A stretch of 44,194 nucleotides of DNA from a virus. The stretch lies in UHGV virus genome UHGV-0204589; one strand, given 5' to 3'. The notes under the pieces were generated by a model that worked only from the letters and a program-made list of their open reading frames with translations, searched no databases and was not told the origin of the DNA. Below are positions 14,242-18,758 of the stretch, one piece after another. The first letter of the stretch is position 1, and the number at the start of each line of letters is the position of its first letter. Made by a program: the position numbers and the translations under genes.

Positions 14242-14535
14242 ATGGAAACATTAAACTCTATTATGGTTGTATGCGGTTGGCTTATTACTCTTGGAGGTGC
14301 AGGAGCCGTAATATACAAATTGTTGCATCCAGCATTTAAGCTAAAAAACCGAGTGGATAAATTAGAAATAAATGTGGAAAAGGATTATAAATCTATCCAA
14401 GAAATAAGAGATATGCAATCTCTTTTATGCCAAGGAATGATAGCATTAATTGATAATCGTATAACCGGTAACAACATAGAGGGTTTAAAAAAAACCAAAG
14501 AAGCTATGATAAAGCATTTGTCAGAAGGTATTTAA
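14242..14535 (+). CDS. small membrane protein (N-terminal TM helix plus coiled coil)
   Basis: VVCGWLITLGGAGAVIY hydrophobic segment. Confidence 0.5.
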   Translation: METLNSIMVVCGWLITLGGAGAVIYKLLHPAFKLKNRVDKLEINVEKDYKSIQEIRDMQSLLCQGMIALIDNRITGNNIEGLKKTKEAMIKHLSEGI

Positions 14536-14546
14536 GGAGCGTTACT

Positions 14547-14747
14547 TTGAAAGTATATGACTTTACAGTGCCAGAACTAAATTATTTTCGTACATATTGC
14601 AACTTTACAGATGAAGAGCGGGCGCTGTTTGAGTACCGGGCTAAAAATTATCCTTTAGAATATTGCGCTGAACTGATGAACGTAAGTGTATCCACAGTCA
14701 AGAGATTAAGCAGAAAAGTAAACAACAAAATCATAAGGGTGTGTTAA
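14547..14747 (+). CDS. small HTH regulator, sigma-70 region 4 / LuxR(GerE)-like
   Basis: TTG start with RBS AAGGAG; EERALFEYRAKNYPLEYCAELMNVSVSTVKRLSRKV resembles LuxR/GerE-type HTH. Confidence 0.5.
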   Translation: MKVYDFTVPELNYFRTYCNFTDEERALFEYRAKNYPLEYCAELMNVSVSTVKRLSRKVNNKIIRVC

Positions 14748-14763
14748 TAAGGGAGAAAACAAT

Positions 14764-14949
14764 TTGAAACAGTTTGCAGATAAAAGTGAGTTAATTATAA
14801 ATTGTGGAAGAACACCCACGCGGGGGAATTGGGTGTCTGTAAAATGGAATGGATTTGAAATAAAATTATCAGACAATGACCAAGTTGCTATTACACAGCA
14901 AGCATTAAAAGATATGTGTATAAAATGCTTAACCGAATTGTTTGGATGA
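14764..14949 (+). CDS. hypothetical protein
   Basis: TTG start, RBS GGGAGA. Confidence 0.4.
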   Translation: MKQFADKSELIINCGRTPTRGNWVSVKWNGFEIKLSDNDQVAITQQALKDMCIKCLTELFG

Positions 14950-14990
14950 TTTTGGATATTAGAATACTTTCGTGATACTTTTATAAGTCT

Positions 14991-15033
14991 TTGACGAACT
15001 GTCAGAGGCTTATTTTTTATGGGATAATTGGAT
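14991..15033 (+). promoter_or_regulatory. promoter-like sequence (TTGACG ... TGGGATAAT extended -10) upstream of cargo gene cluster
   Basis: seen in sequence; weak spacing fit. Confidence 0.3.
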
Positions 15034-15056
15034 TATAAAAGAACGGAGGGGATATA

Positions 15057-15527
15057 ATGCCGCAACCATTTATCAATCCAAACTATCTGAATACATATCC
15101 AAATGCATACCCATATCAGCCGCAGATGCAACCACCTATGGACCGATTGCAACAGCTACAGGCACCATATCAGATGCAACAGCAGACGCAAGTTCCGCAG
15201 GTTCCTCAGACGAATCAGGGTATCTTATGGGTACAGGGAGAGGCCGGGGCAAAGTCATATTTAGTAGCGCCCAGCACATCTATATTGCTGATGGACAGCG
15301 AAAATGAGTATTTTTACATTAAGACGACCGATGCGGCAGGAATGCCAACGCTTCGCACTTTTGAATATAAAGAGATTGTAAATGGTCAGAAAAAGGAATC
15401 TGCACCGGCTGAAAATCTGGATGAAAAATATGTTACAAGAAACGAGTATCAGGATTTAAAGGCAAAATATGATGAATTATATGGCCTTTTAGAATCCAGC
15501 ACAGCGCCAAGCGGAAAGGGGAAATAA
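15057..15527 (+). CDS. Gln/Pro-rich low-complexity N-terminus plus beta-rich C-terminal domain; GerQ-like spore-coat-protein-like architecture (tentative)
   Basis: RBS GGAGGGG; PYQPQMQPPMDRLQQLQAPYQMQQQTQVPQ; resemblance to coat proteins is by composition only. Confidence 0.5.
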   Translation: MPQPFINPNYLNTYPNAYPYQPQMQPPMDRLQQLQAPYQMQQQTQVPQVPQTNQGILWVQGEAGAKSYLVAPSTSILLMDSENEYFYIKTTDAAGMPTLRTFEYKEIVNGQKKESAPAENLDEKYVTRNEYQDLKAKYDELYGLLESSTAPSGKGK

Positions 15528-16543: not shown

Positions 16544-16749
16544 TGAGAAACGAACAGTTTTACGATAATCTTGCTCTATATGCAACTGCATTGCAAATGA
16601 TAGATTTGCTTTTACTCGTTGGTGACGTTTCTAATAGTGATATATTAGAAGCGTTGCGACAGCAAAATAAGGAATACATGGAGAAGATTATCAACCAAAA
16701 CAACCGTATATTGCGTATCTTGTCCGAAAAGGACATGTCTACTGAATAG
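16543..16749 (+). CDS. hypothetical protein (overlaps previous stop, TAATG)
   Basis: MRNEQFYDNLALYATALQMIDLLLLVGD. Confidence 0.45.
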   Translation: MRNEQFYDNLALYATALQMIDLLLLVGDVSNSDILEALRQQNKEYMEKIINQNNRILRILSEKDMSTE

Positions 16750-16815
16750 TAGTATTACACACATAGAGGGGTAGGCACAGGCTTGCCCTTCTGTGCATAT
16801 AAGGAGGATTTTATT

Positions 16816-17214
16816 ATGGCAGATTTTGTAACTGCTGGCACACAGACTGTTGAAGTCAATGGAAGTGTACTGTTTGCAGCAAACCGGGTATATTCCTGTA
16901 ATTGCCCAAATATAAGGCACGAGCCACTTTCTGGGAGAGTGGTTTTACTTCCTGGCCTGTACCGTGTAGGCTTTAACGGAAACTTTTCCGCAGCCGCAGC
17001 AGGTGACGTTATCTTTGAAGTGCAGCAGGACGGCGAAGGCATTCCCGGTGCAAGAATACAGAACACAGTTGCCACCGGCGCAACAATCAATGGAGCAGCA
17101 ACTGTAGAAGTAAGGGTGTGCAAACCATGTTGCGCTACCTTATCGGTAAAAAACGTTGGAGCCACAGCGGCGACAGTATCAGACGCTAACCTTGTTGTTA
17201 GCAGAATAGGTTAA
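16816..17214 (+). CDS. Ala/Gly/Val-rich beta protein, possible BclA-C-terminal-domain (C1q/TNF-like)-like
   Basis: RBS AAGGAGG; ...ATGATINGAATVEVRV...ATLSVKNVGATAATVSDANLVVSRIG; tentative fold guess. Confidence 0.45.
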   Translation: MADFVTAGTQTVEVNGSVLFAANRVYSCNCPNIRHEPLSGRVVLLPGLYRVGFNGNFSAAAAGDVIFEVQQDGEGIPGARIQNTVATGATINGAATVEVRVCKPCCATLSVKNVGATAATVSDANLVVSRIG

Positions 17215-17226
17215 GGGGGTAAGGCT

Positions 17227-17766
17227 ATGAGTTATAAGATGATGCAGAATATCCATGAAGAGCTGGATAAGATTGCGGAAAAGGGCCTGAACACTAGCAA
17301 CCTTGAAACCGCATACAAACTGATAGACATGTGGAAAGACATGGAGAATGTAGAGTACTGGAAGTGCAAAGAAGAGTACTACAATCAGGTAATGGACGAA
17401 ATGGACGGCGGAGAATACAGCGAAGCGCGTCGCAAGCGCGACAGCATGGGACGTTATAGCCGTGCTGATGGAATGTCGCAGGACTATGATAGTGACAGTT
17501 CTTATCGCGGCACACGCGGGAAACATTACGTCAGAGGACACTACAGCCGTGCGACCGGTCCGGCCTATGACGACTACATGAATCAGAAGCAGAGCTACAG
17601 AAGCGGCGGGAAAGATGAAGATTGCAAGCGGCGTATGCTTGCGGCACTTGAACATCACATGGATGAATTGACCGAGGAACTGGGCGAGATGAGCCGTGAC
17701 GCTGAGTGCAGAGAGGAAAGGGAGGTCATGAAACGCTATATAGAAAAACTGCGTAACATGATGTAA
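17227..17766 (+). CDS. charged Tyr/Arg/Ser-rich protein with YSRA repeats
   Basis: RBS AAGGGGG; GRYSRADG...HYVRGHYSRATGPAYDDY. Confidence 0.5.
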   Translation: MSYKMMQNIHEELDKIAEKGLNTSNLETAYKLIDMWKDMENVEYWKCKEEYYNQVMDEMDGGEYSEARRKRDSMGRYSRADGMSQDYDSDSSYRGTRGKHYVRGHYSRATGPAYDDYMNQKQSYRSGGKDEDCKRRMLAALEHHMDELTEELGEMSRDAECREEREVMKRYIEKLRNMM

Positions 17767-17773
17767 TCTAAAA

Positions 17774-17798
17774 GGCAGGATTAACTTCCTGCCTTTTT
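17774..17798. terminator. bidirectional rho-independent terminator GGCAGGA-TTAACT-TCCTGCC plus T-run, between convergent genes
   Basis: perfect 7-bp stem, T5 on + strand and A-run upstream. Confidence 0.8.
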
Positions 17799-18758
17799 AT
17801 GATGAATTTGTACCGGACGCGTCAAAGCGTCTAGAATATCCCATCCTCTGTATATGCGGCTATGTACCCTTGTATAAGGAACTCCGTATTTTCTGCACCA
17901 ATTTGCTAGAGAGTTTGTAACGCCGTTTATTGTGAACATTAAATTCCTATTTGTATTATTTCCTTGTTGAACATCTGTAGCCAATCTACAATTTGATGGC
18001 TCATATCCCTTGGCATTATCAATTCTGTCAATAGATAAATTTTCTTCATACCCATTATTTAAAGCCCATTTTTTAAATTTCTTATACTCTTTCCATTCTT
18101 GGCAAACAGCTATTCCTTTTTCTCCATACAAATAGTACGACTTGTGTTTTGGGCTATAGCAACGTAACATCATATCATGCCATATACGATAAATCCGAGT
18201 ATTTGTATCTCCGTGAGTAGTATTTCTTTCTATGGCAACCTCCCTGTTATAACAGCCACATGATTTTGTATGCCCACTAATTAAGTTTTGTTGATGAACA
18301 ATTACCGAGTTTCCACAGTTGCATTTACATTCCCATAAGGTTTGTTTTCCGTTGCTTTTTCCGGCATACCGTATGGCTACTAAACGCCCAAAACGCTTCC
18401 CTGAAATATCATCCACTTTGGGAGTTCTGCAATTTTTACAGCATTTCTCGTAAGGAGATTTTAATGCGAACGCACTTGTTATAAATCGCGTTCCGCAGTC
18501 GCATGCACATTCGTATTGAACGTATGATTTTTTCATAGGAAGTTTTTTTAATATAGTCAATTTCCCTATTTTTCTTCCTGATAGATTTTCCTTGTTTATG
18601 CAGCCGCATGATTTTGTTTTTCCGTCACGCAGATTCCCAGAATAGATTTTTCGCTCTGTTCCACATTGGCAGCGACATAAATAATACTGATTACCAAGGT
18701 ATTCTAGGACTGTCCACATTCCAAACTTTTGACCTGTTAAATCAATTCTTTTTGTCAT
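17781..18758 (-). CDS. HNH-family (AP2/HNH-type) endonuclease with three N-terminal Zn-ribbon repeats
   Basis: three repeats G(K/R)(K/R)FG.L.V...C.C.CG....SCGC; C-terminal RIYRIWHDMMLRCY...GI.VC.EW...SIDRIDNAKGYEPSNCR; only minus-strand gene within the structural region. Confidence 0.65.
   Translation of the reverse strand: MTKRIDLTGQKFGMWTVLEYLGNQYYLCRCQCGTERKIYSGNLRDGKTKSCGCINKENLSGRKIGKLTILKKLPMKKSYVQYECACDCGTRFITSAFALKSPYEKCCKNCRTPKVDDISGKRFGRLVAIRYAGKSNGKQTLWECKCNCGNSVIVHQQNLISGHTKSCGCYNREVAIERNTTHGDTNTRIYRIWHDMMLRCYSPKHKSYYLYGEKGIAVCQEWKEYKKFKKWALNNGYEENLSIDRIDNAKGYEPSNCRLATDVQQGNNTNRNLMFTINGVTNSLANWCRKYGVPYTRVHSRIYRGWDILDALTRPVQIHHKKAGS

Follow-up and report, generated by a model that had tools for sequence, protein, structure and literature searches.

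Phage morons, such as gp15 of HK97 or lom and bor of lambda, are autonomous transcription units in late operons or at prophage ends, classically a single gene expressed from the prophage. Here we describe a gene cassette with moron-like features in the UHGV virus genome UHGV-0204589, analyzed as one stretch of 44,194 nucleotides (the window), which presents the late region of a temperate siphophage. At the level of sequence, the cassette carries a promoter-like element and flanking intrinsic terminators, separates core genes that would otherwise adjoin or lies in the interval from the lysis genes to integrase/attP, and appears to be dispensable and swapped horizontally as a block. It differs from classical morons in being an operon of six to seven genes with its own regulator of the sigma-70 region 4 type, and in its presence in an apparently virulent phage and in stop-codon-recoded phages, which makes expression in the lysogen doubtful as a general property. 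A moron-like accessory unit is of a known kind; the gene content and the unit's own regulator are new. A survey of Clostridium clostridioforme prophages reported no classical morons (PMC11318856). Neither the literature searched on phage-borne BclA or exosporium genes, Cys_rich_KTR/DUF7841 and Enterocloster prophage proteomics nor the annotations of the phage collection describe the cassette. A first-pass annotation had read the region as a cargo island for remodelling the spore surface. We favor, tentatively and as something short of probable, a different reading: a horizontally mobile, moron-like, multi-gene accessory operon of phages of gut and rumen Clostridia, which would act in lytic growth through a membrane-tethered assembly.

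The conserved gene order is (B66)–(p141)–D–E–F–H–I, where B66 encodes a helix-turn-helix (HTH) protein and p141 a peptidase, and it recurs in more than 90 loci. In the window, the HTH gene (14547–14747) is followed by a junction made of a hairpin and an extended -10-like box (14983–15028) and then by D, E, F, H and I (15057–17766), all on the plus strand. Loci were collected in three ways: a one-genome-per-species scan with an alignment of the F family turned up 147 relatives and contributed 80 retained loci; exact look-ups of F homologues supplied further contigs; and phage records were drawn from the phage collection. Gene order was read from iterative profile searches over the collected loci. 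Across the first 87 loci the commonest member was D (76 loci), followed by I (69), B66 (57), E (52), H (51) and p141 (47). PHROG families match D, E, F, H and I at 1.6e-11 to 1.3e-68, and every one of these families is labelled 'unknown function'; because of these matches and of the gene order kept in more than 90 loci, we take all five to be real genes. The F profile reaches 2,556 clusters at 50% identity, and 7995 of 8000 candidates scored in the 90%-identity collection match F at E ≤ 1e-3. Among the 150 F matches listed, most are full-length (about 200–330 amino acids) and the remainder are shorter and partial. NCBIfam and PADLOC returned nothing above threshold for p141, A–F, H or I, the neighboring KTR protein giving weak PADLOC matches (E 0.002–0.03), and searches of PDB chains with the H sequence and the F, H and D family profiles gave chance-level matches only. 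The open reading frames (ORFs) A, B, C, D, E, F, H and I listed by the first-pass annotation are all present where it placed them, and the residue percentages and Cys counts computed for D, E, F, H and I agree with its description. Its limits for the block, 14242–18758, need revision: the left edge excludes p141, and A97, C61 and G78 are not part of the core but are confined to close relatives.

Comparison of its carriers shows that the unit moves intact between unrelated phage backbones and genomic positions. Of the 92 loci that contain F, 23 have the cassette where the window has it, with the minor head gene on one side and the scaffold gene on the other, 12 carry it directly past the holin/endolysin genes and another 12 just ahead of an integrase or serine recombinase. 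In loci L090 and L091 it abuts host genes at the prophage edge, followed by a Bro-N/ANT antirepressor gene. The head genes alongside the cassette differ completely among carriers, with at least three distinct sets. The block had been proposed to be cargo rather than core virion machinery, with a check on whether it travels as a unit; its occurrence in the head module, past the lysis genes and at prophage edges, next to unrelated head gene sets, bears out the proposal, and the block is indeed shared among phages of differing backbone and position. Nucleotide identity between the window and L008 is 77–88% up to 14749 and 98.4% for 14964–21988, and this jump at 14964 marks a recombination breakpoint about 20 nt 5' of the hairpin. 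A 256-bp deletion in F of the close relative L003 (10001–10450, protein P0028) leaves 149 amino acids; four contigs have this shortened F, their longest index entry measuring 228 kb. The deletion indicates that F is dispensable for the phage.

The cassette is also a repeated target of HNH homing endonucleases, whose insertion sites vary: past I in the window, between E and F in L004–7, and between H and I in the Butyrivibrio virus Ceridwen. The element inserted in the window (17767–18887, minus strand) consists of an antisense HNH gene (17781–18812; PHROG 1.7e-96) and a bidirectional hairpin (17774–17798), and the whole 1.1-kb segment is absent in L003. Homing endonucleases are dense throughout this phage group, where the terminase, the minor head gene and several cassette positions are interrupted or flanked by them. 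The minor head gene is split in two by an HNH gene in L003 and L008, and HNH sites of the relatives lie at 3578–4054 and 6898–7575 in L003, 4939–5763 in L008 and 9518–10312 in L094.

B66 (14547–14747) is a stand-alone HTH protein of the sigma-70 region 4 type (Pfam Sigma70_r4_2, 9.6e-4; PHROG sigma factor, 2.8e-6). As a single HTH domain of about 66 amino acids it falls in the same fold class as GerE/LuxR and sigma-70 region 4 proteins. Among the 50 members of its family, 31 match Sigma70_r4 (best 5.7e-10) and seven match GerE PF00196 (best 1.4e-6), and the window protein itself has no GerE match in the Pfam scan. The initial assignment to GerE/LuxR-type regulators thus captures the general class, but the family matches Sigma70_r4 more often and more strongly than GerE, and nothing ties B66 to sigma-K-dependent coat genes.

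Wherever the B66 gene is present, it lies just 5' of the hairpin that opens the regulatory junction (14983–15028, plus strand). In the window this is a perfect 13-bp hairpin with a T-run at 14983–15013 (-15.9 kcal/mol, z = -5.3); immediately 3' of the T-run, TTTTATGGGATAAT at 15015–15028 forms a TG-n-GATAAT extended -10-like box. Of 77 loci, 51 have a hairpin with T-run ahead of the first cassette gene, and in many of these 51 a TRTG-n-GAWAAT box stands right after the T-run. The stems are often wholly different in sequence between loci, with the pairing maintained. The promoter proposed earlier at 14991–15033 coincides with this specific junction, a hairpin and T-run abutting an extended -10-like box, even though generic sigma-70-like promoter matches across the region are no more numerous than chance predicts (18 found, 18.8 expected). 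We considered the cassette promoter as a general late promoter and rejected this, the motif having a single exact match in the window; two more matches elsewhere carry one mismatch. No convincing CATA-type -10 of sporulation sigma factors was seen in a reading by eye only.

Downstream, a terminator-like hairpin lies within 700 nt 3' of I in 52 of 68 loci. Most of these hairpins stand directly past I or some 300–350 nt further on, the latter spacing being consistent with one extra gene of about 100 amino acids. The L003 unit takes in the Cys_rich_KTR gene before it reaches a terminator, and this gene follows I in the head-module versions of the cassette; it was found 3' of I in L003, L008, L009, L013, L021, L027, L057 and L066. 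The hairpin at 17774–17798, taken earlier as the terminator of the block, is strong (-18.3 kcal/mol, z = -5.7) but belongs to the HNH insertion that L003 lacks.

Two kinds of carrier bear on the stage of the phage cycle at which the cassette is used. One is the Butyrivibrio virus Ceridwen, found by tblastn with an H homologue, which carries the whole unit past its endolysin: a B66-like gene and an annotated terminator come first, p141, D, E, F and H follow, and beyond an HNH insertion stand I and a 108-amino-acid gene. All seven family profiles match (E 1e-10 to 1e-50). Ceridwen forms plaques on Butyrivibrio fibrisolvens DSM 3071, was seen only in lytic growth and was judged virulent by its authors (PMC7372960), and an integrase looked for in its genome was not found. 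The genus Butyrivibrio is non-spore-forming (PMC6249431). The 58-kb bajarodcaudo virus 5 encodes a DNA polymerase and a helicase of its own, lacks an annotated integrase, and likewise carries the cassette past the lysis genes. The other kind is recoded phages: in-frame TAG codons occur in all five cassette genes of L031, L043, L044, L070, L076 and L077, with up to seven in the Q-rich D. The residue most commonly aligned to TAG is Gln, clearly so at well-conserved columns ('GIQ*G' against 'GIQQG'), which identifies these as phages with TAG-to-Gln recoding. Their contigs are mostly 140–180 kb long, L076 being a 2.7-kb fragment, and no suppressor tRNAs were found within the fetched flanks of the recoded loci. 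The products of recoded genes cannot be made until the phage has changed the genetic code (Borges et al., preprint), so the recoded cassette genes would be untranslatable in an uninfected standard-code lysogen. One in-frame TGA was observed in the I homologue of L023. Many of the cassette's hosts are spore-forming Clostridia, such as Enterocloster and Anaerotruncus.

F (15833–16543, plus strand; phrog_16490, 1.2e-62) is the signature protein of the unit. It begins with an acidic N-terminal tail and one hydrophobic helix, continues through a Gly/aromatic linker of the GGWGNGFGG type into about 130 residues predicted to be helical with an invariant CCC, and then has a PVPAY motif in a Pro-rich stretch followed by a CGC...CGC tail. 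The window protein contains DCCCQ, ends in NCGCGCNTGCGC, and comprises 14% Gly and 11% Asn with 11 Cys. Eight of the 46 invariant columns of the family alignment are Cys, and the homologues average 11.3 Cys past the hydrophobic helix. The Pfam scan for coat families, which covered the window protein, gave chance-level matches only and no coat family, NCBIfam gave none, and the F profile has no sequence match in the PDB. The likeness to CotY/Z suggested by the first-pass annotation thus finds no counterpart in the Pfam coat families for this protein.

H (16816–17214, with an alternative start at 16783; plus strand; phrog_20016, 1.6e-11) is rich in Ala (13%), Val (13%) and Gly (10%) and has six Cys, including a conserved CC pair. 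The closest described system is BclA, the nap glycoprotein of the Bacillus exosporium (BclA1–3 in Clostridioides difficile), whose C-terminal TNF/C1q-like domain, BclA_C (PF18573), is matched by 10 of 45 members of the H family (best 5e-7) and is carried by the homologue P0256, which is 62% identical to the window H. The window protein has no BclA_C match at E ≤ 1 in the Pfam scan, so the resemblance to BclA noted earlier applies to the family and not significantly to this member, and hhalign of the H alignment against the sequence of the BclA C-terminal domain (verified as identical to 2r6q) gave a probability of 4%. H is best described as similar to the BclA C-terminal domain, presumably a jelly roll of the TNF/C1q type. 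Like BclA it lacks a recognizable N-terminal signal sequence; unlike BclA it is a bare domain of about 135 amino acids that starts directly with the globular part, without collagen-like repeats in the alignment or an N-terminal exosporium-targeting segment, and one cassette host does not sporulate.

D, E and I each combine a conserved core with low-complexity segments (Q/P/Y, G/M/Q and R/Y/S/D, respectively). D (15057–15527, plus strand; phrog_21718, 1.9e-48) has a Q/P/Y-rich N-terminal tail (Q 12%, P 10%, Y 8%), a conserved core of about 50 amino acids (WVxGExxAK...YxKSxDxxGxP) and a C-terminal coiled coil. E (15531–15779, plus strand; phrog_22984, 3e-22) is rich in Gln (20%), Met (16%) and Gly (16%) and keeps the motifs NPLF..GG and LL.SG..SQ.QLNQ. 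I (17227–17766, plus strand; phrog_28802, 1.3e-68) has helical ends around a variable R/Y/S/G/D-rich low-complexity middle and is rich in Glu, Arg, Asp and Tyr. None of the three has a match in Pfam, NCBIfam, PADLOC or the PDB sequences, and no N-terminal signal sequence was recognizable by eye in D, E, H or I. GerQ-like tails had been suggested; Pfam Spore_GerQ has no match at E ≤ 1 among 64 members of the D family, nor in E, and the suggestion is not upheld. A double-glycine leader on E or F was considered and rejected, as neither the GG of E nor the N-terminus of F is conserved. The ORFs outside the core are also on the plus strand: A97 (14242–14535), with an N-terminal hydrophobic helix and a coiled coil and no Pfam match, was found in only six loci; C61 (14764–14949), a small ORF shared with one other locus only, lies in a stretch without a counterpart in L008; and G78 (16513–16749), which overlaps the end of F and has a weak Pfam match to DAM-like-phage2, occurs in six loci.

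A frequent partner of the cassette is p141 (13855–14238, plus strand), predicted to be a small papain-like cysteine peptidase with a C39-like fold. The listed ORF has a GTG start at 13813 and 141 amino acids, and the homologues align from the ATG at 13855 (127 amino acids). Modelling indicates a papain-like fold that keeps the residue order Gln/Asn, Cys, His, Asp. Lysogens of Enterocloster bolteae and E. clostridioformis carry close relatives of the source phage, in which the p141 homologue is some 92% identical. The comparison is with the C39 double-glycine peptidase domains of the PCAT/ComA exporters (PDB 6mpz, 7s5j, 5xe8), whose fold p141 probably shares; unlike them, p141 is a free-standing protein of 127 amino acids without a transporter and without a match to the PF03412 profile. 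None of 41 family members matches PF03412 (Peptidase_C39), p141 itself has no Pfam match, no ABC exporter was found in any cassette locus, and hhalign shows p141 and the 'C39-like' endolysin of bajarodcaudo virus 5 to be unrelated. Relatives of p141 in Tsamsa-like Bacillus phages adjoin a Ser/Thr kinase as well as an Ocr-like anti-restriction gene, while a relative in Geobacillus phage GBK2 (L095) lies near RecE/RecT; the carriers include Bacillus phage Izhevsk (L096, 9583–9978) and Lak phages. The peptidase family, phrog_3754, is widespread outside the cassette and uncharacterized everywhere. A role for p141 as a dedicated maturation protease was rejected, because the family also stands alone in early regions of unrelated phages.

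How such parts might work together can be sketched as follows. B66 would control a promoter without a -35 box. F may be anchored in the cytoplasmic membrane by its single N-terminal helix, with the helical part of about 210 residues and some 11 Cys facing the cytoplasm, a topology suggested by its acidic N-terminal tail, by partners in which no signal sequence was recognizable by eye, and by the rarity of exported Cys in Firmicutes. H, presumably a trimer with its conserved CC pair, would assemble on F together with the low-complexity D, E and I, giving a membrane-tethered layer or fiber that could be cross-linked, and p141 may act on host or cassette proteins. Our leading guess for the role of this assembly is control of the envelope late in infection, that is, the timing of lysis and egress or the exclusion of other phages, and it draws on two things, the predicted membrane helix of F and the frequent position beside lysis genes.

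Several observations weigh against this account. A promoter-like element of its own, terminators on its flanks and a place at prophage ends are just what a moron expressed in lysogens would show, and prophage expression in temperate carriers such as the source phage is possible. Nearly half of the F-containing loci (45 of 92) could not be placed with the limited markers at hand. Many other genes of the recoded phages are TAG-recoded as well, so the recoding dates the cassette only roughly. The topology of F leans on a weak charge bias, and an AlphaFold2 model of F, built from a 22-sequence alignment, is mostly helical but unusable at a predicted local distance difference test score of 44. The BclA_C link of H comes from 10 of 45 relatives and not from the window protein. 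Finally, the occurrence of phrog_3754 peptidases without the cassette, in early regions of unrelated phages, means that p141 may not act on cassette proteins.

The spore-surface role proposed by the first-pass annotation deserves the closest comparison, since much of its premise is sound as description: the H family does match BclA_C, the regulator is a small HTH of the sigma-70 region 4/LuxR type, D, E, H and I lack a signal sequence recognizable by eye, as do mother-cell coat proteins, the overall composition resembles that of coat proteins, many hosts form spores (Enterocloster, Anaerotruncus), and the moron-like layout with prophage-end positions would suit lysogenic conversion, in which proteins expressed from the prophage during sporulation would enter the coat or exosporium under a GerE-like regulator. 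The carriers speak otherwise. The full cassette occurs in the apparently virulent Ceridwen on B. fibrisolvens, a non-sporulating host of the kind that the annotation itself had named as decisive against its proposal; it occurs in the 58-kb bajarodcaudo virus 5 with its own polymerase and no annotated integrase; and it occurs in TAG-recoded versions. H also lacks a collagen-like stalk and an N-terminal targeting region, GerQ is unmatched in 64 D-family members, the window F has no Pfam match and NCBIfam is empty. Taken together, Ceridwen, bajarodcaudo virus 5 and the recoded carriers make spore-surface lysogenic conversion very unlikely as the general function, and we give the spore explanation little credence. 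A coat-like structure built by lytic phages themselves is conceivable but improbable: the Cys-rich anchor F, the BclA/C1q-like trimer H and the prion-like, Q/Y/R-rich D, E and I might build a membrane-tethered scaffold that forms a condensate or shell in the infected vegetative cell. If so, cross-linking in oxygen after lysis could protect or cluster virions on their way between hosts, much as occlusion bodies or viral factories serve other viruses.

A position within the head module, which 23 of 92 loci share with the minor head protein and the scaffold as neighbors, raises the prospect that the proteins are virion components, whether capsid decorations, head fibers or internal head proteins, and that the peptidase may trim them. 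C1q/TNF-like trimers are common as fiber tips or decorations, which would suit H, and TAG recoding, where it occurs, extends to the cassette just as it does to the genes lying upstream on that strand. We nevertheless regard a place in the virion as unlikely, because elsewhere the cassette lies past the lysis genes or at prophage edges with unrelated head gene sets, it has its own regulator, promoter-like element and terminators, F has a membrane-type helix, and F is shortened in the relative seen on four contigs. The peptidase invites a comparison with host takeover or counter-defence, in which p141 and perhaps the low-complexity proteins would neutralize a host system, and its relatives lie in early regions, where their neighbors are a Ser/Thr kinase and an Ocr-like gene (Tsamsa-like phages) or RecE/RecT (GBK2). 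Such a role, too, seems unlikely: p141 is absent from about half of the cassettes, p141, A–F, H and I are all below threshold in PADLOC and NCBIfam, known anti-defence genes do not resemble a set of five conserved proteins of structural appearance, and the cassette lies at the late end of the genome. The least credible proposal is that the cassette encodes secreted bacteriocins or toxins, with a C39-type double-glycine peptidase as their processing enzyme. It could appeal to the C39-like fold of p141, a GG motif near the N-terminus of E and the Cys-rich tail of F, but there is no ABC exporter and no recognizable leader peptide, conservation is lacking both in the GG of E and at the F N-terminus, Pfam Peptidase_C39 is matched by none of the peptidase family, and the peptidase is also found without the cassette.

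The surroundings of the block in the window are those of a siphophage late region, and the flanks named by the first-pass annotation (a NUMOD4-HNH gene, an antisense HNH gene, two tRNAs, a minor head gene upstream and scaffold and major capsid genes downstream) were all found. Large terminase (6085–7344) and portal (7567–8994) are followed by a 939-amino-acid protein without a Pfam or PHROG match (9297–12116), which lies between the portal and the minor head protein (Phage_min_cap2, 12103–13335). This protein has three internal repeats of the form TGAQL(L/F)DxSK...SAGG...WEPYTGGKPSPSP(E/D)YPQ; it is not in L003 or L008, L009 has a version 49% identical, and a shorter one occurs in Dulem virus 35. 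The NUMOD4-HNH gene (13332–13868; Pfam 2.8e-17) adjoins the minor head gene. Beyond the HNH insertion lie the Cys-rich KTR zinc-ribbon protein (18893–19129, plus strand; Pfam Cys_rich_KTR, 1.6e-19) and a block with tRNA-Ile(TAT) and tRNA-Gln(TTG) (19302–19789). The tRNA block has no counterpart in L003 and therefore looks like an insertion; tRNA-Gln(TTG) is present in bajarodcaudo virus 5 as well. Two Rfam families score above the gathering threshold here, a RAGATH-21 RNA (19213–19299; 79.7 bits) and a GP20-b cis-regulatory motif (19794–19858; 39.4 bits), the latter just 5' of the scaffold gene (Phage_scaffold, PF06810; 19884–20507), which precedes the major capsid protein (20507–21403).

A Hol44-type gene of the holin family (21987–22250; Phage_holin_5_2, 2.7e-22) is embedded in the head-tail connector genes, and 11 kb separate it from the endolysin (33094–33879). 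L001, L003, L008 and L009 have it in the same place, and the homologous holin in L004–7 adjoins an amidase just 5' of the cassette. The two integrases are tyrosine recombinases at 3368–4414 and 34168–35256 (minus strand): one lies 5' of the packaging genes, as in L003, and the other past the lysis genes beside a CI-like repressor (36738–37484, minus strand).

Few unexplained gene sets are commoner than this cassette in phages that infect the dominant Clostridia of gut and rumen, and it is a discrete, regulated and horizontally exchanged module. Its study need not start from sequence databases, as it is carried by the plaque-forming Ceridwen on B. fibrisolvens DSM 3071 and by prophages of cultured Enterocloster strains, which makes direct testing feasible. 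An attractive but wrong label, phage-borne spore-coat genes, has been removed before it could spread. Assigning a function to the cassette would annotate thousands of phage genomes, and could reveal a new late-infection process in Gram-positive anaerobes.

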